UHGV virus genome: UHGV-1695118
Strand: one strand, 5' to 3'
Source of the DNA: a virus
Length of the DNA: 18,953 nucleotides
Numbering within the stretch: position 1 is the stretch's first letter; every line of letters begins with the position of its first letter. Below are positions 4,235 to 18,874 of this stretch, one piece after another. Under the pieces are notes generated by a model that was given only the letters and a program-made list of their open reading frames with translations, was not told where the DNA came from and made no database searches. A program made the translations under genes and the position numbers.

Positions 4235-4486
4235 ATGACAGCTACAACATTAAGCGAAAATAACGGGCGCGGTTTTCAGGGGACTGCGGAAACCTCAGAC
4301 GATGGTGATGTATTTGTCGAATTCGGTGGCGGTAACTATGAATTCGAAACGTCGGCGGGCTGGCACGATAAATGGCCTTTCCCGACGCGCAAGGAATTAA
4401 GCGATCGAAAAACATTTGGCGAAGATGCCGAACGCCTGGCGAATAATAAATGGATGGATAAATTTATTGCGGAGGCTGAAAAATGA
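4235..4486 (+). CDS. Hypothetical protein (83 aa)
   Basis: ORF-track ORF; GAGG 7 nt upstream of the ATG. Confidence 0.6.
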   Translation: MTATTLSENNGRGFQGTAETSDDGDVFVEFGGGNYEFETSAGWHDKWPFPTRKELSDRKTFGEDAERLANNKWMDKFIAEAEK

Positions 4487-4596
4487 GTTTTGCAAAAATT
4501 GCAGCATTGGCTGCGGCGGTGGCGATCGCGGCGCTATATCTTAGCTTATCGCTTTATATTACGGTGGCGATCATCAAGCTGATTACAACTATGTGA
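4483..4596 (+). CDS. Small hydrophobic peptide (37 aa, predicted single transmembrane helix)
   Basis: ATG overlaps the upstream stop (ATGA); GGAGG 7 nt upstream. Sequence MSFAKIAALAAAVAIAALYLSLSLYITVAIIKLITTM. Below the ORF-track cutoff. Confidence 0.5.
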   Translation: MSFAKIAALAAAVAIAALYLSLSLYITVAIIKLITTM

Positions 4597-4603
4597 GGCA
4601 ATC

Positions 4604-4726
4604 ATGAGAGTCAGTAAGGATATTGTGACGGTCGCGTTTTGCGTTATTTGTTTCCTGTTTGCGGTTGTGTTTTGTGGCGCACTTGCGGCAGTGATTAGCT
4701 TTATTGGTAAGGGGGTGATGTTATGA
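4604..4726 (+). CDS. Small hydrophobic peptide (40 aa, predicted transmembrane)
   Basis: ATG 4604 with GTGAGG upstream. Sequence MRVSKDIVTVAFCVICFLFAVVFCGALAAVISFIGKGVML. Stop overlaps the next start (ATGA). Confidence 0.5.
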   Translation: MRVSKDIVTVAFCVICFLFAVVFCGALAAVISFIGKGVML

Positions 4727-4995
4727 CTCTGTGGGATGCAAAAGAAGGTGATCTCGTTGTCTTGCCAGCATATCGTAGTGATCTCGGGCTGGTCGTACTG
4801 AATAAAACATGTAGCGACATTCAACGCCCGATCCTGGTTAGATACTTAGACGGCACGATGATCGAACCGCGTTTCTTCGACAAAGTTGAACTGAAGGCCC
4901 GCAATGTTCGCGTTAAGCCTTTCCGGGCTTATGTTGAAAATCACTGGCGTAAATTGTTCGCCGGACTGAATGGGATGTTCGGCGTATGGCTATAA
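4723..4995 (+). CDS. Hypothetical protein (90 aa)
   Basis: ORF-track ORF, translationally coupled to the upstream peptide gene. Confidence 0.55.
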   Translation: MTLWDAKEGDLVVLPAYRSDLGLVVLNKTCSDIQRPILVRYLDGTMIEPRFFDKVELKARNVRVKPFRAYVENHWRKLFAGLNGMFGVWL

Positions 4996-5177
4996 AATTA
5001 GTGAAGGTTAAACACCTGAAAGGCGGTGAAAGATTAATGTCATGGTGGGGACATGAATTTATTGCTACTGCCTTTCATTTCGGCCTAGGTGGTCAAGTAA
5101 CAATATTTGATGAAGATTACGACGAGGTGGGGCAATGGCATCTTGAGCAATATGTCGAGGTGTTAAATGAAAATTAA
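4986..5177 (+). CDS. Hypothetical protein (63 aa)
   Basis: ORF-track ORF overlapping the upstream stop; no clear SD. Confidence 0.4.
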   Translation: MAIKLVKVKHLKGGERLMSWWGHEFIATAFHFGLGGQVTIFDEDYDEVGQWHLEQYVEVLNEN

Positions 5178-5499
5178 ATTCCACAAAGCGTATGACGCTA
5201 ACACAAACAAGCTATCACTATTTATCGAATTCGAACGCCGGATCGTGGTAGCGCCTTGGTCGCGGCGCTTTAATGACGCCGCCGGGCGTAGACAATTCGC
5301 GGTCGATATGCTGTTACGCGGCTGCGGCCTTATGCGTCCGCTATCTGATTTAAAACGAATGATGCCGGGATCGTTCGGTCAGATTGATGAAATAGAAATA
5401 AGCCCGGAAGAACTGAAACGTGAGCGTGATTTATTCCTTTCAAGCGAAGGAAACCCGTTTAATTCAGAAACTGAAATGAAATGGCATCATCCACTATAA
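5167..5499 (+). CDS. Hypothetical protein (110 aa)
   Basis: ORF-track ORF; GAGGTG 4 nt upstream of the ATG. Confidence 0.55.
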   Translation: MKIKFHKAYDANTNKLSLFIEFERRIVVAPWSRRFNDAAGRRQFAVDMLLRGCGLMRPLSDLKRMMPGSFGQIDEIEISPEELKRERDLFLSSEGNPFNSETEMKWHHPL

Positions 5500-5510
5500 G
5501 GGTAAATATT

Positions 5511-6131
5511 ATGAACAATATCAAAACGGCTTATTCACTCGGCAGCGAAGGCATGTTAATTACTCGCTACACAGAGGACGCGAGCTTTCACGAAGTGGTA
5601 ACTAAGGATTATCACGAAGTTTTAAAAGATATGGAAGCAGGAGTGTATGACAGTGACTTAAATCTGGCGCTACAGATTGTTGATATTATGATGGATGCAT
5701 CAATCCGCGATTACGTGTCTTTAAGCATGGAAGAAAAAACATCGGTAGCGCGTTATGTGTTCTGCCTCACTTTCGTAAGACGCATGGAGGAGGAATTCGG
5801 ACGCGCACCAGTGCCGGAAGATGTTGATCCGCTCGCGTTCGGAAGTGCTGTTATTTTCCCGTTGAACAAGGATCGGCTTGGCAGTGTTTCACTGCATTCT
5901 ATGCGCGCCCTGATGAAAAAGGTCTTTGAGGTTAAGATGTTGCAGAAATTTATTGAGGAAGGACACGAAGAAGTGAACGTTAAGGCGTTTATTCCGGTGC
6001 TTTACGGAAATTTTGTTGGCGATGATATGCGCGCTAATGAATTAGGCGTACAGGCGGCTATAGCTACGCTTAACGAAGCAATGAAAAGTGCACAGCCTAT
6101 TCATGAACAGGAAAAACGTGTACTGCATTAA
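5511..6131 (+). CDS. Hypothetical protein (206 aa; alternative start 5481)
   Basis: ORF-track frame 5481..6131. ATG 5511 is preferred because AAGGG lies 8 nt upstream. No recognisable motif. Confidence 0.6.
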   Translation: MNNIKTAYSLGSEGMLITRYTEDASFHEVVTKDYHEVLKDMEAGVYDSDLNLALQIVDIMMDASIRDYVSLSMEEKTSVARYVFCLTFVRRMEEEFGRAPVPEDVDPLAFGSAVIFPLNKDRLGSVSLHSMRALMKKVFEVKMLQKFIEEGHEEVNVKAFIPVLYGNFVGDDMRANELGVQAAIATLNEAMKSAQPIHEQEKRVLH

Positions 6132-6133
6132 CA

Positions 6134-6153
6134 GCGTGATTGCGATCACATAA
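6134..6153. promoter_or_regulatory. Palindromic element GCGTGAT-TGCG-ATCACATAA (copy 1)
   Basis: Inverted repeat GTGAT-N4-ATCAC read directly. Nearly identical to the element at 9714-9733. Fits a CRP-like TGTGA-N6-TCACA pattern at 9 of 10 positions. Confidence 0.5.
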
Positions 6154-6230
6154 ATATACATTTTGTATTGTGATTGCATATCCGTTTTGTAAGCCGAAAT
6201 CAAAAGGTTTACGGTGCGGAGGAAAACAAG

Positions 6231-6449
6231 ATGGCCCGCGAATTAATGCTTTATTGTGTTGAGGGTGGCGTAGGTAGTAATGCCTATGTCGCCGGGAAAG
6301 GCTATCCAGCCGATGAAGTGCTTTCTAATATGCACTTCCGGGAAAATGAAAGCCGGGTGTCTGTGTGGAAACGGTGCATTGATGGTATTGAGGTTGTAAG
6401 TATCGAACGGTATTTAGGCACGTTTGATTACGGTGTTATTGAGGCTTAA
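6231..6449 (+). CDS. Hypothetical protein (72 aa)
   Basis: ATG 6231 within ORF-track frame 6174..6449; GGAGG 8 nt upstream. Confidence 0.55.
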   Translation: MARELMLYCVEGGVGSNAYVAGKGYPADEVLSNMHFRENESRVSVWKRCIDGIEVVSIERYLGTFDYGVIEA

Positions 6450-6451
6450 TT

Positions 6452-6544
6452 ATGGACGACACATTGTTTTATATGTGCTGTTGCTGGGGTTTTATTGCCT
6501 TATGTCTGTTTATCAGGTGGTTTATTGAATACCATATGAGGTGA
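6452..6544 (+). CDS. Possible 30-aa hydrophobic Cys-rich peptide
   Basis: ATG 6452 with GAGG 7 nt upstream. Sequence MDDTLFYMCCCWGFIALCLFIRWFIEYHMR. Very short, so weak. Confidence 0.3.
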   Translation: MDDTLFYMCCCWGFIALCLFIRWFIEYHMR

Positions 6545-6547
6545 GGC

Positions 6548-6742
6548 ATGGAACAGAAAACTGATTATAGAATACCTGATGGCCTAAAATTAGTTGGCAT
6601 TGGTTTCGGGTGTAGATTTGTATCTGACGCAAAAGGAGCGATTTATTTAATACGTCTTATTGATGGCGTTCAACATATAAGGAGATTAGGAATTTACATC
6701 AAAGCATTCAGAAGAGGTTATTTAAAAACTCATGAAATTTAA
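6548..6742 (+). CDS. Hypothetical protein (64 aa)
   Basis: ORF-track ORF; GAGGTGAGG directly upstream. Confidence 0.55.
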   Translation: MEQKTDYRIPDGLKLVGIGFGCRFVSDAKGAIYLIRLIDGVQHIRRLGIYIKAFRRGYLKTHEI

Positions 6743-6935
6743 ACATTACATGGAATGGAAAATTCCAGAAGCAGCAACAAAGGCAGCGCCAGGAAATGTT
6801 TCTGGCGTTTATTTTTATATGGATGGCAAATGGTATTTCGGCAGCAGGCCGGATCGCTACTATCAAGAAATATGCAAGCCTCACGTATGGGATATTAAAG
6901 AGCGCGTGAAAGGCGGGGTAATTGAGGACGTTTAA
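6732..6935 (+). CDS. Hypothetical protein (67 aa)
   Basis: ORF-track ORF overlapping the upstream gene end; SD distant. Confidence 0.45.
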   Translation: MKFKHYMEWKIPEAATKAAPGNVSGVYFYMDGKWYFGSRPDRYYQEICKPHVWDIKERVKGGVIEDV

Positions 6936-6936
6936 A

Positions 6937-7164
6937 ATGATGCGTGCAATTATTGACTTCATTATTGGATGGTTATTTTGTTCTTTTTTCGTATTCTCAT
7001 GTATAGCTACGGTTTTTATTGGAATTTTATGTGGTGTGTCGTTTGTTACATGGGAGCTACCAGAAATTCCATCACCTGATGATGCGCTTTATATATTAAG
7101 GGTTATTATTGCTGTTAGTGTATTTGTTGGGTTCTTTTTCGCTGATTCTACTGATGATTTATAA
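6937..7164 (+). CDS. Small membrane protein (75 aa, two predicted transmembrane helices)
   Basis: ATG 6937 within ORF-track frame 6922..7164 (which uses a TTG start). Hydrophobic stretches IIDFIIGWLFCSFFVFSCIATVFIGILCGV and ILRVIIAVSVFVGFFF. Confidence 0.55.
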   Translation: MMRAIIDFIIGWLFCSFFVFSCIATVFIGILCGVSFVTWELPEIPSPDDALYILRVIIAVSVFVGFFFADSTDDL

Positions 7165-7165
7165 A

Positions 7166-7399
7166 ATGGCTTTATTTAACCTGTCAGAGCCGCAATTTAA
7201 CGCCGTAAAGACTGCCGCCCGCGCCGCGCTTTCGGCCTGCAAAGCGGAAGTAGAAAAGAACGGATACAGCGATAAAGCTACACGGCTGATATTAGAGAAG
7301 CATTATCGCAAGGTCGCCCCACTAATCAGTATTGAGCGCTTTGTGTGGTTGGTGGGGTATTTAAACAACCGTTGGGGAACGGAACAGGATTATTTCTAA
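7166..7399 (+). CDS. Hypothetical protein (77 aa)
   Basis: ATG 7166, one nt after the upstream stop, within ORF-track frame 7109..7399. Confidence 0.5.
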   Translation: MALFNLSEPQFNAVKTAARAALSACKAEVEKNGYSDKATRLILEKHYRKVAPLISIERFVWLVGYLNNRWGTEQDYF

Positions 7400-11052: not shown

Positions 11053-11231
11053 AAAACGAAGTTAAAGATCTGCAAATAGATATTCAGCGCGACGAGCGTG
11101 ATTTAGAGACGGTCCGACAAATCCAGGCTTTCCACATGCGCGAATTACTTGCGCTGAAAGAGTTCGAAAGAAAGCTGGTGCAATCCATTTCTGATCGTAA
11201 ACGGCTGGCGGCGCGTTATGAGGGCAAATAA
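11049..11231 (+). CDS. Small charged coiled-coil protein (60 aa)
   Basis: ORF-track ORF translationally coupled on both sides (ATGA with rusA, TAATG with Q). Confidence 0.5.
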   Translation: MKNEVKDLQIDIQRDERDLETVRQIQAFHMRELLALKEFERKLVQSISDRKRLAARYEGK

Positions 11232-11959
11232 TGAATTTAGAATCCATTCTAAAATTCCACTTTCCTAAATCACCGCGATTATCTGACGAAAGCCGGGGCA
11301 CGTCCCCGGACGCTCTTAATACGACGGATGCGCTAACCGCTGCGGGTATGGCGCAATCGCGCGTAGAGCTTGGATATAGCGCTTTTTTAGGGAAGATGGA
11401 ACTATCACAAGCCGAAAAACATAGGGCCGTAGTTTTGCTTACAGAGCGTTTAAGGGCTATGGCGAAAGATTACGAATACGTGATGGAGTTAAACGAGGAT
11501 CAGCGCAATGGACTTATTATTCTTGTTGCCGTTTTCGCGTTTCGGGATTATTGCCAGAGTGCGGCGACCGAAAAAGTTTGCCCTAAGTGCGGCGGCCACG
11601 GGCATTTACCAAATCCATATTGCAAATACACATCGACAATTTGTTCGCGGTGCAACGGCAAAGGCTACGTTAAAAACCATTGCCAACGTTGCAAGGGGCG
11701 CGGAGAAGTACCGGATAAAGCAGCCAGTGAAGCGGCGGAAATGCCAGTATTCAAAACGTGCCAGCATTGCGGCGGGCGCGGGTACTCGCGTTTCCCGGTA
11801 GATCTCGTCCGGCAGGCCGTTAACCAGCTTGTTTTCCCGGTAAGCAGATCAACATGGTGGAAGAAATACCGGGTTTTCTATGAAGACGCCATAGCGGAGC
11901 TATTCAAAGAAGAGGCCCGCGCGGAAAGCGAAATTAAACGAGTGACACGGGGTGAATAA
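11231..11959 (+). CDS. Q: Late-gene antitermination protein Q (lambda Q type)
   Basis: 242 aa. N-terminus MNLESILKFHFPKSPRLSDESRGTSPDALNTTDALTAAGMAQSR parallels the remembered lambda Q start. Four CxxCxGxG zinc-finger motifs. Confidence 0.88.
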   Translation: MNLESILKFHFPKSPRLSDESRGTSPDALNTTDALTAAGMAQSRVELGYSAFLGKMELSQAEKHRAVVLLTERLRAMAKDYEYVMELNEDQRNGLIILVAVFAFRDYCQSAATEKVCPKCGGHGHLPNPYCKYTSTICSRCNGKGYVKNHCQRCKGRGEVPDKAASEAAEMPVFKTCQHCGGRGYSRFPVDLVRQAVNQLVFPVSRSTWWKKYRVFYEDAIAELFKEEARAESEIKRVTRGE

Positions 11960-12063
11960 TGGACAAGTTAGAAATAAACGATCAGTTTGCCGTTATCTTA
12001 TTCGAAGATAAAACAGGCGGCGCATGTTGTAAAAAAAAGTCACTGGTGCTGAAGCGCGCTTAA
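11959..12063 (+). CDS. Possible 34-aa ORF coupled to Q (TAATG)
   Basis: ATG overlaps the Q stop. Sequence MDKLEINDQFAVILFEDKTGGACCKKKSLVLKRA. No independent support. Confidence 0.2.
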   Translation: MDKLEINDQFAVILFEDKTGGACCKKKSLVLKRA

Positions 12064-12147
12064 TATTGGGTATGGCAAGCGCGTTAAATGATGGCGAATT
12101 GCCCGCCATCCCTGTTAAGCCAGTGCATATCTATAAAAGGGGCGACA

Positions 12148-12495
12148 ATGAAAATGATTAATATCGGTTGGTTATATTGCGAAAACTGCGACGACGACGG
12201 CATGGTTGTTAAGACTGAAAAAGGCTGCGGCCTCTTTCTGTATCAAGGCGATAAGTTTGTTTGTCCGCGATGCGGTGGTAGTGGTGAGATAGAAATTATT
12301 GAAGATAACGCCGTAGCGCAAGAACCAGAGCGCATTGTCCTTGATGAAAAAATAAAAATTCATCCTGATTTATTACAGCAAATTATCGATCACGTATCGG
12401 CAGCCGCAATCTACGGCGATAACAATTATCAGCGTGAAATGAACGTCAAACGTGCGATTGAGCAGTATTTCGAAGGTGACGACAATGAAGCCTAA
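12148..12495 (+). CDS. Zinc-ribbon protein (115 aa, two CxxC pairs)
   Basis: ATG 12148 with AAGGGG upstream, within ORF-track frame 12088..12495. Motifs YCENCDDDG and CPRCGGSG. Confidence 0.6.
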   Translation: MKMINIGWLYCENCDDDGMVVKTEKGCGLFLYQGDKFVCPRCGGSGEIEIIEDNAVAQEPERIVLDEKIKIHPDLLQQIIDHVSAAAIYGDNNYQREMNVKRAIEQYFEGDDNEA

Positions 12496-12754
12496 ATTAA
12501 AAGAGCATGAATTTAGGGATCTCATAAACGGAATAACCGATAAAGCTAGGATGTACTCAAATGCGCAACAGTTAAGGGCGGTTATAGTTACGGAATTAAT
12601 GAAATACATTGAGCCATGCGGACCAGGCGACGAAATGACTATGGATAAGGCCATCAAGCGCCGTTCGGCTGATTGGTCGGTTAGTAACACTGGATTAACC
12701 GGATACATTGAAGGCTATAACGACTGTTTACAGGATCATGGCAATGAAAAGTAA
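12485..12754 (+). CDS. Hypothetical protein (89 aa)
   Basis: ATG 12485 with AAGGTG upstream, within ORF-track frame 12452..12754. Confidence 0.55.
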   Translation: MKPKLKEHEFRDLINGITDKARMYSNAQQLRAVIVTELMKYIEPCGPGDEMTMDKAIKRRSADWSVSNTGLTGYIEGYNDCLQDHGNEK

Positions 12755-12959
12755 CCGCAAGCGCCTTGTAAGGGCATACGATAAAGCATTAAAGGCTTTT
12801 GATGATCTGCGACACAATAAGCGCCAGCGCCGCAAATGGGCGCGTATGCTTGTTTATGAGTGGCATTATTCTGATGCTTTCATGGAAAGTGCGCCGCTAT
12901 TAACACAGGAACAAGCCGACGAAGTAGCTAACGATAACGTTTATTATATGATGTGGTGA
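12744..12959 (+). CDS. Hypothetical basic protein (71 aa)
   Basis: ATG 12744 with AGGA 8 nt upstream, within ORF-track frame 12708..12959. Confidence 0.5.
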   Translation: MKSNRKRLVRAYDKALKAFDDLRHNKRQRRKWARMLVYEWHYSDAFMESAPLLTQEQADEVANDNVYYMMW

Positions 12960-12963
12960 TAAT

Positions 12964-13329
12964 ATGCAAATAATCATTGATTACCTTTGCCACGCTGCAA
13001 ATACGCTTTTCGGTTTTTATCAGCAACCACTCCTGAAAGAATGGGACGAAATGCTTAATGACATCCTCGACAAAGGGTTAATAATGGAATTCGGGGAGCT
13101 AACAATCAAATTTAATTACGAAGGCAAAGAATATGACATATGGGTAGGCAACAGATGGTATGCATACGGGCATATTTATTCAATTGGCGGTAAATACATT
13201 AAACGAAGTCAGGAATTTAGACCGCGCTTCCGCACAATGCGACGACTGCATGACCTGCATATGAAGATATTTGGAGATCAGGAGGCACGGGAATTATTCA
13301 AAATTTACGGGGGTAAATCATGGAGCTAA
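12964..13329 (+). CDS. Hypothetical protein (121 aa)
   Basis: ORF-track ORF; GGTGA upstream. Confidence 0.6.
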   Translation: MQIIIDYLCHAANTLFGFYQQPLLKEWDEMLNDILDKGLIMEFGELTIKFNYEGKEYDIWVGNRWYAYGHIYSIGGKYIKRSQEFRPRFRTMRRLHDLHMKIFGDQEARELFKIYGGKSWS

Positions 13330-13550
13330 AAATCTGGCAGGCTATCGACGTAGTTGATAATGAATTAACAATGTTTGCCACTGACGGAAAGCGCGTGGTT
13401 ATCGCTACATGGACGCATAACCATGATGATATTGTTTTTCGTCGCAAGGCTGCGGAGTGGCTTTTCTCTGACAACGGCTACACGATGAATATCATGCAGC
13501 TTTCCAGAATGAAGGATGAAAAGCTGGTTGATAGTTACACAACTGCATAG
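13320..13550 (+). CDS. Hypothetical protein (76 aa)
   Basis: ORF-track ORF; GGGGG 6 nt upstream. Confidence 0.55.
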   Translation: MELKIWQAIDVVDNELTMFATDGKRVVIATWTHNHDDIVFRRKAAEWLFSDNGYTMNIMQLSRMKDEKLVDSYTTA

Positions 13551-13560
13551 TGGGGCAAAT

Positions 13561-13794
13561 ATGTGTATCTATGAACACAAGCGGGATAAAACCCGCTTTT
13601 TTGTTCGTGCTGGCGTGGCTTACCAGTATCACGACTGCGGATATATCGAGGCGCTTGCTTACGATCTGGATTTCGAACAAGAAAAAGAATGGTTTGATTT
13701 CAAGATTTACCGGAAGCGCAAGCCAACGCGTGACGAACGACACGCTATCCGGGACTTTTTAATCAGCATAGACCGCTGGGAGGCAGACGAATGA
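13561..13794 (+). CDS. Hypothetical protein (77 aa)
   Basis: ATG 13561 with GTGGGG upstream, within ORF-track frame 13516..13794. Confidence 0.5.
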   Translation: MCIYEHKRDKTRFFVRAGVAYQYHDCGYIEALAYDLDFEQEKEWFDFKIYRKRKPTRDERHAIRDFLISIDRWEADE

Positions 13795-14018
13795 AAGTTA
13801 AATTCTTGCACGATCACGGATACCCGTCATTGAAACAGGTTGTTGGTAAGGTCGTTAATGTCGTTCATAGCGATGATATTGCTTGCATGATTAATGGTGC
13901 TGATCTCATTGCTGCTGGTGCTGATGACCATTACATCAATCCGGCGTGGTCGTATACGTTCAGCCTGGGCGACTTCGTGGGCGATAAGGGGCGCGGGCTG
14001 CAAGTAGTCGAGGGTTAA
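13791..14018 (+). CDS. Hypothetical protein (75 aa), possible distant member of the tandem paralog family
   Basis: ORF-track ORF with ATGA coupling. Weak similarity to the downstream paralogs (ADDHYINPAWSY versus the shared YI-DD-G-W motif). Confidence 0.5.
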   Translation: MKVKFLHDHGYPSLKQVVGKVVNVVHSDDIACMINGADLIAAGADDHYINPAWSYTFSLGDFVGDKGRGLQVVEG

Positions 14019-14022
14019 TATT

Positions 14023-14271
14023 ATGGACGTTTACGAGGATGTTTACCTGGCACCTTCATCTTATAGCTTTTATTTTCTGATAAATGGAAAGGCTTATAGA
14101 TGCGATTCTGACGGGGTGAGAGAAGAAAAGCTGTTTTGCACTAAAGGATACCTGGATGATTTGGTTTTTGCCGGGATATTTCGTAAACGCCCGGCTAACC
14201 TGGAAGAAGAAATGTTGATTGAGGTAATTAAAAATGAAAATAAGGGTAAGTTATTTCCGGGCGAAAGATAA
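14023..14271 (+). CDS. Hypothetical protein (82 aa)
   Basis: ORF-track ORF; GAGGG upstream. Confidence 0.55.
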   Translation: MDVYEDVYLAPSSYSFYFLINGKAYRCDSDGVREEKLFCTKGYLDDLVFAGIFRKRPANLEEEMLIEVIKNENKGKLFPGER

Positions 14272-14485
14272 GGCAACAGGAAAGCAGATTGCGATCCTGG
14301 TTAACGAGGCGCAGTACATGTTTGTCCTTCAGCCGTGGTGTGTTGTAGATCTTAACGACAACTGTCGCCGCCACGCTGCGCGAAGTGCTGTTGGTATGAA
14401 AGGCTGGCAACCGCGCGACATGGAAAAATATTGTGAATGGAAATTGGTGGCAAAATACACGGTCGATTATAAAGGGGTTTTCTGA
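14234..14485 (+). CDS. Hypothetical protein (83 aa)
   Basis: ORF-track ORF overlapping the previous gene by 38 nt; GAGG 9 nt upstream. Confidence 0.5.
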   Translation: MKIRVSYFRAKDKATGKQIAILVNEAQYMFVLQPWCVVDLNDNCRRHAARSAVGMKGWQPRDMEKYCEWKLVAKYTVDYKGVF

Positions 14486-14709
14486 TGTTTGTAAAATGTA
14501 TAAAGTCTCGTTTCCCTAATCTTTTTGTGGTTGATGAGATTTACGACATAGAAACGCTAATAAGCAGAACTAACGATATTCAGTACATTTATGATGAAGA
14601 TGGCGATCCGTGGTTTTTTTATAACGATCTCAATGGTAGCGGATTCGTTGATGGCGTTGGCGGTAATGGTGTGCCAGTTGCGCTATTTATAAATGCAAAT
14701 AAGGAATGA
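14485..14709 (+). CDS. Tandem paralog family member A (74 aa)
   Basis: Sequence MFVKCIKSRFPNLFVVDEIYDIETLISRTNDIQYIYDEDGDPWFFY aligns with the three following ORFs. ATG overlaps the upstream stop. Confidence 0.6.
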   Translation: MFVKCIKSRFPNLFVVDEIYDIETLISRTNDIQYIYDEDGDPWFFYNDLNGSGFVDGVGGNGVPVALFINANKE

Positions 14710-14714
14710 ATATC

Positions 14715-14921
14715 ATGTATGTTAGATGCACTGAATCAAAATCATCATGCTTTGAGGTTGGCGGAATATATACCGTAGCTCACCTGACTGGTGATGAACT
14801 TAACACCCAATACATTAAAGACGACCACGGAGACGCGTGGCGCTATTGGGATTGTTACGCGCGTGGACACGTTGCCAGCCAGTTCAGTACGGAACCGATC
14901 GCGCGTTTTGTTAAGTGGTGA
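14715..14921 (+). CDS. Tandem paralog family member B (68 aa)
   Basis: Sequence MYVRCTESKSSCFEVGGIYTVAHLTGDELNTQYIKDDHGDAWRYW. ATG 14715 with AAGGA 9 nt upstream, within ORF-track frame 14706..14921. Confidence 0.6.
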   Translation: MYVRCTESKSSCFEVGGIYTVAHLTGDELNTQYIKDDHGDAWRYWDCYARGHVASQFSTEPIARFVKW

Positions 14922-14930
14922 GGTAGTGTT

Positions 14931-15170
14931 ATGAGACAGAATCAGAGATACCAGTGCACATACTCACGATGCAGCGCGTTTTTTAAGAATGGCAAGATCT
15001 ACGAAGTCGGAGCGGCATTGGTTGACGCAAAGGATCAGGAATATATTCACGCCATTACTGACGACCAGGGCCAGTTATGGCGATTTTATAAGATGGGATG
15101 TGGAACTGCGCTTGTTTATGCGCGGGCTTGTGGTGGTGCTTTTGCTGCGTTTTCGTATGTAGGTGCATAA
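14931..15170 (+). CDS. Tandem paralog family member C (79 aa)
   Basis: Segment YQCTYSRCSAFFKNGKIYEVGAALVDAKDQEYIHAITDDQGQLWRFY. GAGGT upstream. Confidence 0.6.
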   Translation: MRQNQRYQCTYSRCSAFFKNGKIYEVGAALVDAKDQEYIHAITDDQGQLWRFYKMGCGTALVYARACGGAFAAFSYVGA

Positions 15171-15171
15171 A

Positions 15172-15390
15172 ATGATTTTAACGTGTAACGAATCGAGATT
15201 AGGTTGTTTTGAGGAAGGAGCACAGTACACGGCTGAAAAACCGATGGGATTGTCTCCTAAATTTCCGTTTATCGTCGTGACTGACACTTACGGTCACTTA
15301 TGGTATGCAGGGCCGCTAGGCGGTATTGGTCGTTATGTTGTCCGTAGTTTGGATGGGGCGATGAAGGTTACTTTTACGGAAGAAACGTAA
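15172..15390 (+). CDS. Tandem paralog family member D (72 aa)
   Basis: Sequence MILTCNESRLGCFEEGAQYTAEKPMGLSPKFPFIVVTDTYGHLWYAG. ATG 15172 within ORF-track frame 15163..15390 (which uses a GTG start). Confidence 0.55.
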   Translation: MILTCNESRLGCFEEGAQYTAEKPMGLSPKFPFIVVTDTYGHLWYAGPLGGIGRYVVRSLDGAMKVTFTEET

Positions 15391-15416
15391 ATGTGATCTG
15401 TATTACAAGGTTTACG

Positions 15417-15450
15417 AAATGGCATTGTTTCGGCAGTGCCATTTTGTTAT
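15417..15450 (+). terminator. Rho-independent terminator-like hairpin after the paralog array
   Basis: AAATGGCATTG-TTTCGG-CAGTGCCATTT: 11-bp stem with one G-U pair and a 6-nt loop, followed by TGTTAT. Confidence 0.5.
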
Positions 15451-15488
15451 AAAGAAGCTGAAGAGAGAACGATGCGGAGGGTAGAAAA

Positions 15489-15767
15489 ATGAAACGCTGG
15501 ATTAACAAAGAAGTCGAATCTCGCTTAAACGCATTTTGGGAGATGGTGGAGAAAGAAGACCCAGCACACGCTGCAAGCCCTTACCTGAACAACATCGAAT
15601 ATCACTACATTGCAGCAAACAACGCGGAGTTCGAAGAAGAAGGTGGAGCCGACAAGTTCGCACAAAGCAACGCATTCAACAACGCAAACGAAATGATGAT
15701 GGCAGTCATCGAACAGGCAGAGGAAGACTACGAATGCAAATCACTTGAATTCGCACGTATGGCATAA
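15489..15767 (+). CDS. Acidic small protein (92 aa)
   Basis: ORF-track ORF with GGAGGG upstream. Strongly Asp/Glu-rich (EFEEEGGADKF, EQAEEDYE). Confidence 0.6.
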   Translation: MKRWINKEVESRLNAFWEMVEKEDPAHAASPYLNNIEYHYIAANNAEFEEEGGADKFAQSNAFNNANEMMMAVIEQAEEDYECKSLEFARMA

Positions 15768-15777
15768 GGGGGAAACC

Positions 15778-15918
15778 ATGAACGCTAACGCTAAATATCC
15801 GGCCTGGGTTTTCGAACTGTACGCAAGATACTTTGAATTACTGGCACAAGGTGAAGAAGCATTAAGCATTGACGAGTACGCGGAGTGCTTAGGGTTTAAA
15901 GGAGACGAAGAAGCATAA
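15778..15918 (+). CDS. Hypothetical small protein (46 aa)
   Basis: ATG 15778 with AAGGGGG 5 nt upstream. Sequence MNANAKYPAWVFELYARYFELLAQGEEALSIDEYAECLGFKGDEEA. Below the ORF-track cutoff. Confidence 0.45.
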   Translation: MNANAKYPAWVFELYARYFELLAQGEEALSIDEYAECLGFKGDEEA

Positions 15919-15923
15919 AACAC

Positions 15924-15939
15924 GGGGCCGGATGGCCCC
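15924..15939. other. Perfect hairpin GGGGCC-GGAT-GGCCCC in an intergenic spacer
   Basis: 6-bp GC stem with a GGAT loop. No U-tract on the plus strand; a moderately T-rich tract follows on the minus strand. Confidence 0.4.
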
Positions 15940-15961
15940 ATCAAATCAGAAGGGTGTAATC

Positions 15962-16261
15962 ATGAAAAGCGCTAAATTTATTGCTTGCTGTTTTGTTGAA
16001 GTTCCTAACGATGATGTTTTCTGTAATTATGAATTTAAAGACAGCTTAGGCAGATCTCACATTGTTGTTGGCAAACGCGGCGACTGGTTATATATAACCG
16101 ATGACGATATGATTTTTACCAGAAATCAACTTTTTCACATCCACTCAGTAAATAATTATGCGCCAGTTGCCGCTATATCCGTAATGGATATGCACGCTAA
16201 GAAATGGATTGAAAAGGACGATATTAACGAAGCGCGTAGCTTACCTGGTGCGGAGTTTTAA
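15962..16261 (+). CDS. Hypothetical protein (99 aa)
   Basis: ATG 15962 with AAGGGTG upstream, within ORF-track frame 15932..16261. Contains GDWLYITDDD, loosely like the paralog motif. Confidence 0.55.
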   Translation: MKSAKFIACCFVEVPNDDVFCNYEFKDSLGRSHIVVGKRGDWLYITDDDMIFTRNQLFHIHSVNNYAPVAAISVMDMHAKKWIEKDDINEARSLPGAEF

Positions 16262-16264
16262 TTT

Positions 16265-16519
16265 ATGGAAATAATCAAAATATGGCGCGGCAACAGTAAG
16301 GCTGACGGTGAGTTTTGCCGCGTCGTTCAATTCGTAAATTATGGTAGGTTTTACGAGCTACCTTATGACAAAAGGAAAGATGATTTCTATTTAAGCGAGT
16401 CAATCCCGGTGCACAGAAAAATAAAGGCGCTTAGGGGGTTGTTGCGAAGTGGTTTTTATTCTTGCCCTAACCCATTAAACAATCCTGAACTGGTAGCTAT
16501 TTTTTACGAAGGAGAATAG
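16265..16519 (+). CDS. Hypothetical protein (84 aa)
   Basis: ORF-track ORF; GGAG 9 nt upstream. Confidence 0.5.
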   Translation: MEIIKIWRGNSKADGEFCRVVQFVNYGRFYELPYDKRKDDFYLSESIPVHRKIKALRGLLRSGFYSCPNPLNNPELVAIFYEGE

Positions 16520-16522
16520 ACA

Positions 16523-16846
16523 ATGTCTAAATTTATCAGCGTTAAAGTTTTCCGTGGCACTTTACCGAACGAAGAAAGATTAGGACAATTTGCCGGGCAA
16601 CCTAGTGCATGTTTCCGTGTAGCCACTGAAGACGATGCGCATGTTAAATGCTTCCACGTATCGGAACCGCCTTTTAATGCAGACCATCTTGAAGACCCGG
16701 ATAGAATTAAAAGCCTAGTATCTGCCTATCTGATGTTCCAGGGTATCGCTGATATGGAAGTGGAATTGCTTGGCGCTGAACTGGTGGCAGAATACAAAAT
16801 TACTGAAGCAGAAAGCGGAGAATCAAAAATTGAGCGCATCAAATAA
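16523..16846 (+). CDS. Hypothetical acidic protein (107 aa)
   Basis: ORF-track ORF with AAGGAG 8 nt upstream. Confidence 0.65.
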   Translation: MSKFISVKVFRGTLPNEERLGQFAGQPSACFRVATEDDAHVKCFHVSEPPFNADHLEDPDRIKSLVSAYLMFQGIADMEVELLGAELVAEYKITEAESGESKIERIK

Positions 16847-17081
16847 ACCTTACAAAATCCGTTGTAAAGGTGAATACCCTGGCTTTACGACTGGTTGCGA
16901 ATACTTGGGCCACATTGGATGCGGCCCTTTCGGTGAGTTAGGGATGAATACGCTGGACGACGACGGCGACAGCCGGACGCTTGATCTTGATTCTGATGAT
17001 TTCGAATACATCCCGCCAGTAACTTACCGTGCCGTTGATGATTTCCTGGCTGAACATGAAGACGAGGGCGATGATGATTGA
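16830..17081 (+). CDS. Cys-containing protein with a highly acidic C-terminus (83 aa from TTG 16830; ORF-track frame starts at 16770)
   Basis: Start uncertain: both candidates are TTG codons; GGAG lies 9 nt upstream of 16830. C-terminus DDDGDSRTLDLDSDDFEYIPP...AEHEDEGDDD. Confidence 0.4.
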   Translation: MSASNKPYKIRCKGEYPGFTTGCEYLGHIGCGPFGELGMNTLDDDGDSRTLDLDSDDFEYIPPVTYRAVDDFLAEHEDEGDDD

Positions 17082-17268
17082 ATGCCTTATAGCTGTGATT
17101 GTTTTGCTTTATATCGCTGGCGCTATCCTGATGTCTTGTTTTATTAAGTTTAGCGGAGCTGAACCTGGCGGCCTTGAGATTCCTTTTTGGCCTGTGACTG
17201 TGTTTATCGCTTTCTTCGACGCTACGGCAGGGCAGATCAATCGAGCTATTAAGGAGCGCAAGAAATGA
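17074..17268 (+). CDS. Small membrane protein (64 aa)
   Basis: ATG 17074 with GAGGG upstream, within ORF-track frame 17029..17268. Hydrophobic stretch IECLIAVIVLLYIAGAILMSCFI. Confidence 0.5.
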   Translation: MIECLIAVIVLLYIAGAILMSCFIKFSGAEPGGLEIPFWPVTVFIAFFDATAGQINRAIKERKK

Positions 17269-17444
17269 TTGAAGATGGGGTGTACGCAACAGTAGTAGAC
17301 GGGCTGTTTTACCGCGTAGAAGGTGATGATATTCGCATCCGCGTTGGCGGTGGTGAGTGGGTAGCGCCAATCATTAAGACGGCGCGAGAAACAATTAAAA
17401 TATTTCTTGATGCTGGTGAACTGGTGAGGGTTAGCGACCTATGA
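17265..17444 (+). CDS. Hypothetical small protein (59 aa)
   Basis: ATG overlaps the upstream stop (ATGA); AAGGAG 8 nt upstream. Sequence MIEDGVYATVVDGLFYRVEGDDIRIRVGGGEWVAPIIKTAREITKIFLDAGELVRVSDL. Below the ORF-track cutoff. Confidence 0.5.
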   Translation: MIEDGVYATVVDGLFYRVEGDDIRIRVGGGEWVAPIIKTARETIKIFLDAGELVRVSDL

Positions 17445-17617
17445 ACGAGATCGAAGATGGTATCTATTTGCATAAGGTATTTAACATCGTCTATTTACTT
17501 AAAGGTAATAAGGTGATGATAAGACCTGATGACGATCCACATTGGGAATCAAGCGACATGGATCGGCGGCATATGCAAATGTTGCTTGATAACGGCCTGA
17601 TATATAGAAAGCCGTAA
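17441..17617 (+). CDS. Hypothetical small protein (58 aa), possible paralog of the preceding gene
   Basis: ATGA coupling. Sequence MNEIEDGIYLHKVFNIVYLLKGNKVMIRPDDDPHWESSDMDRRHMQMLLDNGLIYRKP shares an IEDG(V/I)Y start with the upstream ORF. Confidence 0.45.
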   Translation: MNEIEDGIYLHKVFNIVYLLKGNKVMIRPDDDPHWESSDMDRRHMQMLLDNGLIYRKP

Positions 17618-17624
17618 GCCGTAT

Positions 17625-17653
17625 TTGTAGGGCGTAAACAAACAGATTAAAAT
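17625..17653 (+). promoter_or_regulatory. Candidate promoter (-35 TTGTAG, 17-bp spacer, -10 TAAAAT) upstream of the lysis genes; possible late PR'-like promoter
   Basis: Read directly; lies 25-50 nt upstream of a strong terminator. Identified by eye only. Confidence 0.35.
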
Positions 17654-17680
17654 ATTTCCTAACAATGCGAAATTGTAATT

Positions 17681-17711
17681 ACCCGGCCCCGCGCCGGGTT
17701 TTTGCTTTGTT
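17681..17711 (+). terminator. Rho-independent terminator immediately upstream of the holin gene (tR'-like position)
   Basis: ACCCGGC-CCCGC-GCCGGGT 7-bp GC-rich stem followed by TTTTGCTTTGTT. Confidence 0.7.
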
Positions 17712-17723
17712 GGAGGAAAATCT

Positions 17724-17924
17724 ATGTTCGACAAAATACGGGGGGCGTGCGCGTATGTGGCTGGGGCCGTAACTGCTTTTTTCGGCGCGATAACCATCAA
17801 TGACATTGCCGTCTTTGTGGGTATCTTATCAACCGTAGGCACATTTGCCGTTAACTATTACTTCAAATCACAGGAGAACAAGCGAGCGCAAGAGGAACAC
17901 GACGCGCGAATGGGGAATAAGTAA
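17724..17924 (+). CDS. Holin, class II pinholin-like (two predicted transmembrane helices)
   Basis: 66 aa with GGAGG 7 nt upstream. Two hydrophobic helices and a charged C-terminal tail. Immediately precedes the SAR endolysin, as in phage 21. Confidence 0.75.
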   Translation: MFDKIRGACAYVAGAVTAFFGAITINDIAVFVGILSTVGTFAVNYYFKSQENKRAQEEHDARMGNK

Positions 17925-18416
17925 ATGATTAGCCAATCGCTGAAAAACAAGATTATTGCTGCGGCGGCTGGTGGGGCGATCGCTATTGCGGCTGTGATGG
18001 TTAAACCATTAGAAGGCGTGGAGTACGATCCGTATCGTGATGCTATCGGTGTATGGACTGTATGTTATGGTCACACCGGAAAAGACATTATGCTGGGTAA
18101 AACTTACACGCAATCAGAATGCGATGCTTTGTTAAACAAAGATCTCCACAAAACCGCAAAAGCGATTGGCCCATATATTAAAGTCGAAATATCAGATTTT
18201 ACCCGCGCGGCGCTTTATTCATTCGCCTATAACGTAGGCGCTACCAACTTCAAAACATCAACATTATTGAAGCTACTCAATGACGGCAAGAAATCGGAGG
18301 CGTGCGCACAGCTTAAACGCTGGATATATGCTGGTGGTAAGCAGTGGCAAGGGTTAATTAACCGCCGTGATGTTGAATATGCCGTTTGCGAATGGGGTGA
18401 AACATGGACAAGGTGA
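17925..18416 (+). CDS. R: SAR endolysin (GH24 lysozyme with N-terminal signal-anchor-release domain)
   Basis: 163 aa. Gly/Ala-rich N-terminal segment [17 protein letters not shown], then [34 protein letters not shown]...[20 protein letters not shown]...[12 protein letters not shown], close to remembered phage 21 R. Confidence 0.92.
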
Positions 18417-18874
18417 AGACGTTAATCATCGCCGTTGTTGTTTGCATTATTGCCGGGCTTACCGCCGTAACGTGTTATTACCAGGGTGAGGCGGCAAGGT
18501 TACAGGAAGAAGTCACGGTGACGAAAGGCGCACTAAAAACAGCAAGTAACACTATCCAGCAGATGAAGGAGCGAAACGCCGAACTGTCAAAACTTGATAA
18601 GAGGTATCACGATGAGATTAAAGCTATCAGATCTGACATTGCCGATCTTCGCGCTGGCATTGATAGCGGTGCTATCAGGTTGCACGTCAACGCCGAGCCA
18701 GTGTACGTGCACGACGCCACCGGAACCGCCAGCAGCATTAATGGAGCCACCTGTAGACTTACTGCCAGTGCTCAATCAAATTATCTATCCCTCAGAGAAC
18801 AACTAAAAGAGAAAGACGCGAAGATCACCGGATTACAGGACTACATCAAAACGCAGTGCATACGCAAAGAATAA
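18404..18874 (+). CDS. Rz: Rz-like i-spanin
   Basis: 156 aa. N-terminal transmembrane helix ([16 protein letters not shown]) and coiled-coil periplasmic domain. Overlaps the endolysin 3' end. Confidence 0.8.
18612..18806 (+). CDS. Rz1: Rz1-like o-spanin lipoprotein, nested in the +1 frame inside Rz
   Basis: 64 aa from ATG 18612 with AGAGG 7 nt upstream, within ORF-track frame 18594..18806. Signal peptide with lipobox LSGC, then a Pro-rich mature region. Confidence 0.75.
   Translation: MRLKLSDLTLPIFALALIAVLSGCTSTPSQCTCTTPPEPPAALMEPPVDLLPVLNQIIYPSENN

Follow-up and report, generated by a model that had tools for sequence, protein, structure and literature searches.

The antiterminator Q of phage lambda is described as having a cis-preference for its own target. 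In Shiga toxin (Stx) phages, the stx genes lie beyond the terminator tR' and alongside tRNA genes. They are located downstream of the late promoter pR' and stand under direct pR'/Q control (PMC6266700). The mEp-immI phages, a group of Nus-dependent, non-lambdoid temperate siphophages described in 2025, possess a Q-like protein and an N-like antiterminator (Gp17) that acts at nut sites, and human faecal samples are reported to contain them as commonly as lambdoid phages (Negrete-Mendez et al. 2025, PMC11893012). Here, we analysed the metagenomic virus genome UHGV-1695118, a stretch of 18,953 nucleotides hereafter referred to as the window, in which an island of 23 plus-strand open reading frames (ORFs; g1 to g23, positions 11959-17617) separates a Q gene from the holin gene. 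A preceding sequence-only reading had compared this island to the accessory hotspot of Stx phages and to phage anti-defence or host-takeover islands. With a probability of roughly 0.6, we propose that it is an accessory region of an mEp-immI phage, which would form the tail of the early operon upstream of the late module and whose products would bind proteins of the host or of rival phages.

Results

Phage identity and comparison set

By an exact-protein look-up, the window was placed on a 46-kb ENA metagenome scaffold. Seven phage records match the island DNA at 85-86% identity and with patchy coverage, and all of them belong to a single group (mEp010, MagusPhagus, mEp044, mEp554, mEp013, mEp021 and mEp515); the match to mEp010 extends over 77% of the island (85% identity). 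Prophages matching the island are present in 35 of 5,426 complete Escherichia coli genomes, the best of them with 91% coverage at 93% identity, and a scan of GTDB representative genomes with Q yielded no relative. The window is a metagenomic relative of the mEp-immI coliphages, such as mEp010 and mEp021. For comparison, 56 related loci were collected, and the per-locus counts below are given over 57 loci.

The interval between Q and holin is the main flexible gene region

Between the end of Q and a conserved module preceding the holin gene, the interval spans 1.9 kb (mEp021, eight genes) to 7.1 kb (median 5.4 kb). In a rough pangenome, each locus contributes 8-30 genes, which fall into about 52 families: 6 core families (present in at least 95% of the loci, i.e. 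55-57 of 57), 21 intermediate and 25 rare ones. The conserved backbone consists of g5, g6, g7, g9, g10 and the g22/g23 family. Since Q occurs once, and module plus holin once, in 57 of 57 complete loci, the variable content is enclosed by conserved brackets, and the postulated accessory hotspot between Q and holin was recovered across the whole comparison set.

Identity to single relatives jumps gene by gene: g9 is 98% identical to its counterpart in strain N25 and 66-72% identical elsewhere, and g18 is 100% identical in some relatives and only about 45-52% in others. A tile-by-tile search for the best match revealed at least five donor switches between segments that are 99-100% identical to different E. 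coli prophages. The order of donors is MS 21-1-like through Q, followed by KKa019/UMNK88-like DNA, 3 kb of N25-like DNA, a GN05505/MS 21-1-like segment and finally MS 21-1-like DNA through the lysis genes. The island content is thus reshuffled by homologous recombination between co-resident prophages, and the interval represents the main flexible region of a temperate coliphage of the mEp-immI type, carried on a small conserved backbone. About half of the genes of mEp-immI phages are flexible and unannotated, and of the regions that we examined, none holds such genes more densely than this interval.

An alternative is that most of the block encodes proteins required by the phage itself, namely small regulators, helpers of replication or minor components of the virion. 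The six families found in 55-57 loci speak for this, as does g9 in particular. Its homologue mEp021_41 (70% identity), the syntenic gene between the g8 and g10 homologues of mEp021, carries the annotation 'virion structural protein' on the basis of mass spectrometry of CsCl-purified virions and is reported to be conserved in 48 of 48 published genomes. Part of the block may hence be housekeeping, which weighs against our proposal. However, 46 of the approximately 52 families are not core, and the plaque-forming mEp021 lacks 14 of the 23 genes of the window and carries only eight genes in its interval. Among relatives, divergence between alleles of one gene reaches 55%, and no similarity to a known replication, regulatory or structural family was found. 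The earlier reading has to be corrected in that part of the block is core, the g9 virion-protein homologue included; that the island as a whole is mostly housekeeping appears unlikely.

Two observations concern related small-gene content. In some relatives (loci L004 and L009-L012), a gene annotated as ASCH-domain or 'RNA-binding' is present in the island just after the position of g3; it is absent from the window and is the only island gene with a curated domain name. Upstream of Q, between the single-strand DNA-binding protein (SSB) gene and the Dam gene, about a dozen further small ORFs of the window follow one another in the same direction (4235-7399), in what looks like the same kind of small-gene region.

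A conserved module upstream of holin places the island before the putative late promoter

Aligned over its full length, the Q protein of the window shares 33% identity with lambda Q (E 5e-45), and by sequence it is a true lambda-Q relative. An insertion of 33 residues relative to lambda Q contributes two additional CxxCxGxG motifs, so that the protein has four compared to two in lambda Q. A near-threshold Pfam match to the DnaJ zinc finger was also seen for Q.

In lambda, pR' starts about 45 nt after Q and combines TAAATT, 6 nt and AACGAT. A comparable layout is found in the window at the far end of the island, where the 106-nt gap before the holin gene holds a conserved non-coding module of 88 nt, 19 nt upstream of the holin start codon. 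It contains a -35-like TTGTAG (17625-17630; three of six positions match), followed by the -10 element TAAAAT (17648-17653), a 7-nt spacer and a -10-like pause element AACAAT (17661-17666). A hairpin with a 7-bp GC stem lies at 17681-17699 (-18.1 kcal/mol, z -3.35) and is followed by a T-run. This pattern has a single exact match in the window, and the segment 17648-17705 is the only lambda-pR'-like arrangement in it.

In each locus, a single copy of the module (92-100% identical) immediately precedes the holin gene; seven phages and 32 E. coli genomes contain it with 93-100% identity, and it is always unannotated there. The flanking genes show a synonymous divergence (dS) of 0.23-0.67, and no other non-coding sequence of the region is as conserved as the module. 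The -10 element, AACAAT, both stem arms and the T-run are invariant and the loop is variable, and the DNA to the left of the module (different last genes) and to its right (a different holin allele) has been swapped between loci. We infer that the module combines a Q-dependent late promoter, a sigma-dependent pause element and a terminator (pR'/qut/tR'). Within its initially transcribed region (17670-17683), two variable positions always co-vary (AAATTGTAATT vs AAACTGTAACT), which suggests linked alleles or a repeated recognition element.

Some points weigh against this assignment. The promoter is proposed by sequence analogy and conservation and binding of Q is putative, the -35 element of the window is weak, and in about a third of the loci the upstream sequence is a different one, in which a -35 cannot be recognised. 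The distance from the Q gene to the module amounts to 5.66 kb in the window and 1.9-7.1 kb in relatives, compared to approximately 45 nt in lambda. Two other candidates for a late promoter were discarded, namely a promoter-like site upstream of a hairpin in g7 (13468-13495), which is not conserved beyond codon constraint, and the region after Rz in mEp021, which shows no pR'-like arrangement.

Because the pR'-like module follows the island, the island would lie between Q and the target of Q, and it is therefore most likely part of the early operon and not of the late operon. All genes from about position 2400 onward, including those for Erf, SSB, Dam, NinG and RusA, are encoded on the plus strand. 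We suggest that RNA polymerase carrying the modification by the N-like Gp17 would transcribe the island as the distal tail of this rightward early operon. The island products would be made together with Q and ahead of the genes for lysis and virion, and the lysogen would not express them. The terminator-like hairpin with T-run embedded in g7 fits a need for antitermination. It is nearly invariant and more conserved than the surrounding codons across the approximately 57 loci, and one relative carries a compensatory synonymous pair (CGG>CGC and ACC>ACG), which keeps the stem paired and the protein unchanged. Early-gene context is also provided by g5, whose homologues with 40-50% identity reside in the early operon of P2-like Salmonella prophages, a distribution that fits a mobile early gene, and by a family of tandem paralogs (g11-g14) with members upstream of Q in two relatives.

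If the promoter of the module is constitutive, an RNA of about 44 nt (17660-17703) would be expected in lysogens, which is predicted to end in the hairpin unless Q acts. Such an RNA would be a much shorter counterpart of the lambda 6S RNA or of the small RNA StxS of Stx phages (PMC7547250).

The opposite arrangement was considered as well, with the late promoter at the end of Q or shortly behind it and the island as late-operon cargo like stx, transcribed with the lysis genes only once Q has acted. The island does occupy the place between Q and holin where Stx phages carry late cargo (PMC6266700), and the conserved hairpin inside g7 could in principle be tR'. Yet g1 overlaps the stop codon of Q, the plus strand from 11900 to 13000 offers no non-coding gap and no promoter- or terminator-like site, the site before the g7 hairpin was rejected, and the only lambda-pR'-like arrangement of the window is the one upstream of holin. 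Furthermore, no tRNA genes are present. We hence regard late cargo as quite improbable, and the supposed likeness to the Stx-phage hotspot does not extend to its order: there, the cargo is downstream of pR', whereas here the pR'-like module comes after the island. The preferred reading, an early-operon tail, predicts the timing of the island proteins, which would appear early and together with Q.

The island genes are real

Of the 23 ORFs counted, 22 are intact and one is frameshifted. An independent gene caller run on the identical metagenome scaffold called 22 of them, and PGAP annotations of close relatives agree with the gene set. The coding density is 95%, and 13 junctions overlap (four ATGA, two TAATG/TGATG and seven overlaps of 10-38 nt). 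Boundaries, tight co-directional packing and stop/start overlaps were thus described correctly beforehand. Of the size range given then, 34-121 amino acids (aa), the upper end holds, but the 34-aa ORF is the front half of a broken 67-aa gene and the intact genes encode 46 to 121 aa.

The pooled ratio of non-synonymous to synonymous divergence (dN/dS) against 12 relatives is 0.02-0.46 for 22 of the 23 genes (0.28 for g3), compared to 0.13 for Q, 0.23 for holin and 0.07 for lysozyme in the same analysis. For g18, dS is saturated at 45-52% identity (dN 0.41), so that no ratio can be given. Spurious ORFs in non-coding or decaying DNA, an explanation for which only the frameshift in g1 speaks, have practically no chance in view of dN/dS values well below 1 in 22 genes, the dense coding and the maintenance of the ORFs in 57 loci including seven plaque-forming phages, and are already refuted. 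The island genes are real and not chance ORFs.

On the minus strand, ORFs of 161 aa and 111 aa are interrupted by stop codons in relatives. An antisense 83-aa ORF opposite g6/g7 (13492-13743, minus strand) remains uninterrupted in most relatives but shows less conservation than g7, which is encoded by the same DNA, and hence is probably no gene.

Features of the island and its flanks are listed in Table 1. The 34-aa ORF of g1 (11959-12063) represents the N-terminal half of the gene, and phrog_35000 matches its residues 1-29 only. The break is located in an A8 run (12031-12038) with two extra bases relative to all intact homologues and may reflect a true pseudogene or a metagenome assembly error. 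In the case of g7, phrog_30442 aligns to residues 16-92 of the 92-aa form.

Table 1 Features of the island and flanking regions in the window.
Feature	Position	Strand	Description	Basis or further detail
Q	11231-11959	+	Q antiterminator gene, 242 aa, lambda-Q family	PF03589, E 1.2e-30
g1	11959-12161	+	Frameshifted copy of a 67-aa gene; start overlaps Q stop codon (TAATG)	Alignment with intact homologues, frame analysis
g2	12148-12495	+	115-aa acidic protein, N-terminal zinc ribbon (CxxC...CxxCxGxG), flexible	25/57 loci
g3	12485-12754	+	89 aa	phrog_29262
g4	12744-12959	+	71 aa, basic	phrog_8758
g5	12964-13329	+	121 aa, near-core	56/57 loci
g6	13320-13550	+	76 aa, core	57/57 loci
g7	13561-13794	+	77 aa, core; alternative start 13516 gives 92 aa	Ribosome-binding site GGGG before 13561
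Hairpin in g7	13579-13605	+	Terminator-like hairpin with T-run embedded in g7	
g8	13791-14018	+	75 aa	phrog_5009
g9	14023-14271	+	82 aa, core	
g10	14234-14485	+	83 aa, basic, core	
g11	14485-14709	+	First of four tandem paralogs, 74 aa, pI 4.2	
g12	14706-14921	+	Paralog 2, 71 aa (or 68 aa from 14715)	
g13	14931-15170	+	Paralog 3, 79 aa	
g14	15172-15390	+	Paralog 4, 72 aa	BLASTP to g12 E 6e-5, iterated profile
g15	15489-15767	+	92 aa, acidic (pI 4.4), flexible	21/57 loci
g16	15778-15918	+	46 aa, acidic (pI 4.1)	
g17	15962-16261	+	99 aa	No PHROG match
g18	16265-16519	+	84 aa, two very different alleles	
g19	16523-16846	+	107 aa, acidic	
g20	16830-17081	+	83 aa, TTG start, very acidic C-terminus (pI 4.1)	
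g21	17071-17268	+	65-aa membrane protein, only clear one in island	phrog_10061; maximum 19-residue hydropathy 2.76
g22	17265-17444	+	59 aa, paralog of g23	phrog_15318
g23	17441-17617	+	58 aa, paralog of g22, near-core	phrog_15318
Module	17625-17708	+	Putative late promoter/Q-utilisation/terminator module	Sequence, conservation, layout like lambda pR'
Lysis cassette	17724-18874	+	HP1-type holin 17724-17924, lysozyme 17925-18416, Rz 18404-18874	Pfam matches

Searches for protein function

Scans of the 23 island proteins against Pfam, NCBIfam and PADLOC gave no significant match, which agrees with the prior statement that no enzymatic motif is recognisable, as none of the 23 carries a curated domain. 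Sub-threshold hits to DnaJ CXXCXGXG (16.9 bits), PAP_RNA-bind (E 0.003) and GapS1 (E 0.005) were dismissed as noise. Phage-only PHROGs are matched by 20 of the 23 proteins, all of 'unknown function' except for a weak secondary match of g5 to phrog_14894 ('membrane protein'; category 'moron/auxiliary'). PDB sequence searches with g2, g5, g17, g19 and a profile of the g11-g14 paralogs returned nothing significant; g2 weakly resembles zinc-ribbon proteins of the PDB (E 0.02). Rfam and tRNA scans of the window found nothing, and the large-database matches of the g9 and g12 families are confined to E. coli and metagenome or read-assembly sequences. As for the protein types named earlier, the zinc-ribbon protein (g2), the strongly acidic proteins (six, pI 4.1-4.5) and the tandem paralog array (g11-g14) were all found again, but instead of several small membrane proteins there is a single clear one, g21.

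The weak g5 match and g21, a small membrane protein that could act in superinfection exclusion, are what speaks for lysogenic-conversion morons, i.e. genes transcribed independently, expressed from the prophage and of benefit to the host. Other features argue against them: the genes all point in one direction, their stop and start codons overlap, and single genes lack promoter-terminator units of their own. Shuffled sequence contains more promoter-like sites than the actual one (16.2 vs 11), and the G+C content of 0.40-0.47 is like that of the rest of the phage. A moron origin of the island is thus very unlikely.

Returning to the proposed accessory region, its products are small, soluble and often acidic proteins without catalytic domains, which would most likely bind proteins of the host or of rival phages and thereby serve host takeover, counter-defence or competition between phages. 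We infer this mode of action more weakly than the position of the late module, and an anti-defence function of the island is a plausible possibility. Against it stands that no known defence or anti-defence family was detected with Pfam, NCBIfam, PADLOC and PHROG, of which PADLOC models defence-system proteins and not anti-defence proteins; no dedicated anti-defence database was searched. Of the earlier reading, the accessory hotspot was upheld, but the suggested resemblance to anti-defence islands found no family match, and its only lead is a predicted structural resemblance of the tandem paralogs to the phage protein Gp54.

Tandem paralogs with a predicted Gp54-like fold

The paralogs g11-g14 (14485-15390) match each other in pairwise BLASTP with E values of 1e-7 to 6e-5. 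A common match to phrog_31142 is seen for three of them, and all four are joined by an iterated profile. Among relatives, the family varies from 0 to about 6 copies, and its members upstream of Q lie between RusA and Q (locus L003, 1864-2100; locus L006, 1223-1519). The L003 copy is unannotated by PGAP.

In an AlphaFold2 (AF2) model, g12 is predicted to form a six-stranded beta-barrel with a long beta1-beta2 loop, as in Gp54 of phage Bas11 (PDB 9AXB). Foldseek retrieved the same fold from many uncharacterised enterobacterial phage proteins with TM-scores of up to 0.85. Gp54 is a dispensable 66-aa protein that directly activates the defence protein CapRel(SJ46); its fold was described as very rare, and its discoverers suggest that Gp54 may inhibit another defence (Zhang et al. 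2024, PMC11578894). We therefore consider that the g11-g14 family may sit at the phage-immunity interface, because it is predicted to adopt the Gp54 beta-barrel and CapRel senses Gp54 directly. This is a fold-level lead and not a statement of family membership, and several findings weigh against reading more into it. Sequence similarity between g11-g14 and Gp54 was seen neither with hhalign (probability 0.2%) nor in a PDB sequence search. The match compares a predicted model, built on a 6-sequence alignment (pLDDT 85, 76, 51, 47 and 44 for the five models), with a crystal structure, and the function of Gp54 itself is unknown (PMC11578894).

All four paralogs contain a D-x-x-G-x-x-W motif (14593-14613, 14820-14840, 15060-15080 and 15283-15303), which resembles the sialidase Asp-box, and the paralog profile weakly matched PDB sialidases at this motif. 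An exhaustive profile search with the family retrieved about 16 small-protein clusters. Matches to long proteins, with 4-12 matched stretches each, probably reflect the motif and not homology.

A more specific version of our proposal would see the island as a delayed-early counter-defence arsenal, in which the Gp54-fold family (0-6 copies per phage) supplies decoys or inhibitors of CapRel-type sensors and Q works efficiently 2-7 kb from its own gene, contrary to the cis-preference of lambda Q. We put this forward tentatively and hold it to be doubtful as a whole. The predicted fold would nevertheless connect a prophage family that has expanded in tandem with Gp54, the only small protein known to trigger CapRel, and offers a concrete, testable entry point, and the presumed early timing can guide the screening of the island proteins.

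Comparison with known systems

How does the island compare with known systems? Its closest counterpart is the Q-to-holin region of the mEp-immI phages mEp010, MagusPhagus, mEp044, mEp554, mEp013 and mEp021, with which the window shares phage group, synteny and flanking genes, differing in its own mosaic combination of alleles. In the published records, every gene of this interval is annotated as 'hypothetical'. The description of the group states that flexible genes cluster in variable regions, but the Q-to-holin interval, the position of the late promoter and the paralog family were not analysed there (PMC11893012). The interval is thus already present in published genomes, unannotated and undiscussed.

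The Q-to-S region of Stx phages likewise carries variable cargo between the Q gene and the lysis genes. In contrast to it, the cargo of the window is located upstream of the pR'-like module and comes without tRNAs and without a toxin-like domain. With respect to gene architecture, the island is similar to the lambda nin region, a set of small dispensable ORFs in the N-dependent early right operon: both consist of many small, co-directional and translationally coupled ORFs, the island would also be read by an N-type antiterminated polymerase, and NinG and RusA are encoded in the same operon. However, none of the island proteins is a Nin homologue. In lambda, the nin region lies upstream of Q and pR' within about 45 nt of Q, whereas the window has a second, larger block downstream of Q, and a lambda-family Q gene is here uncoupled from its presumed promoter by kilobases.

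Concerning the paralogs, Bas11 with its Gp54 is a Drexlerviridae phage, whereas the window belongs to a different phage family and holds four tandem copies. Finally, a survey of cultured enterobacteriophage isolates described phage 'accessory regions', variable hotspots of small genes with conserved genes on either side (Silas et al. 2023, bioRxiv 10.1101/2023.04.06.535777). In contrast to those regions, no island gene matches a validated counter-defence gene. The layout is the same as here, and the region between Q and holin belongs to the phage accessory regions.

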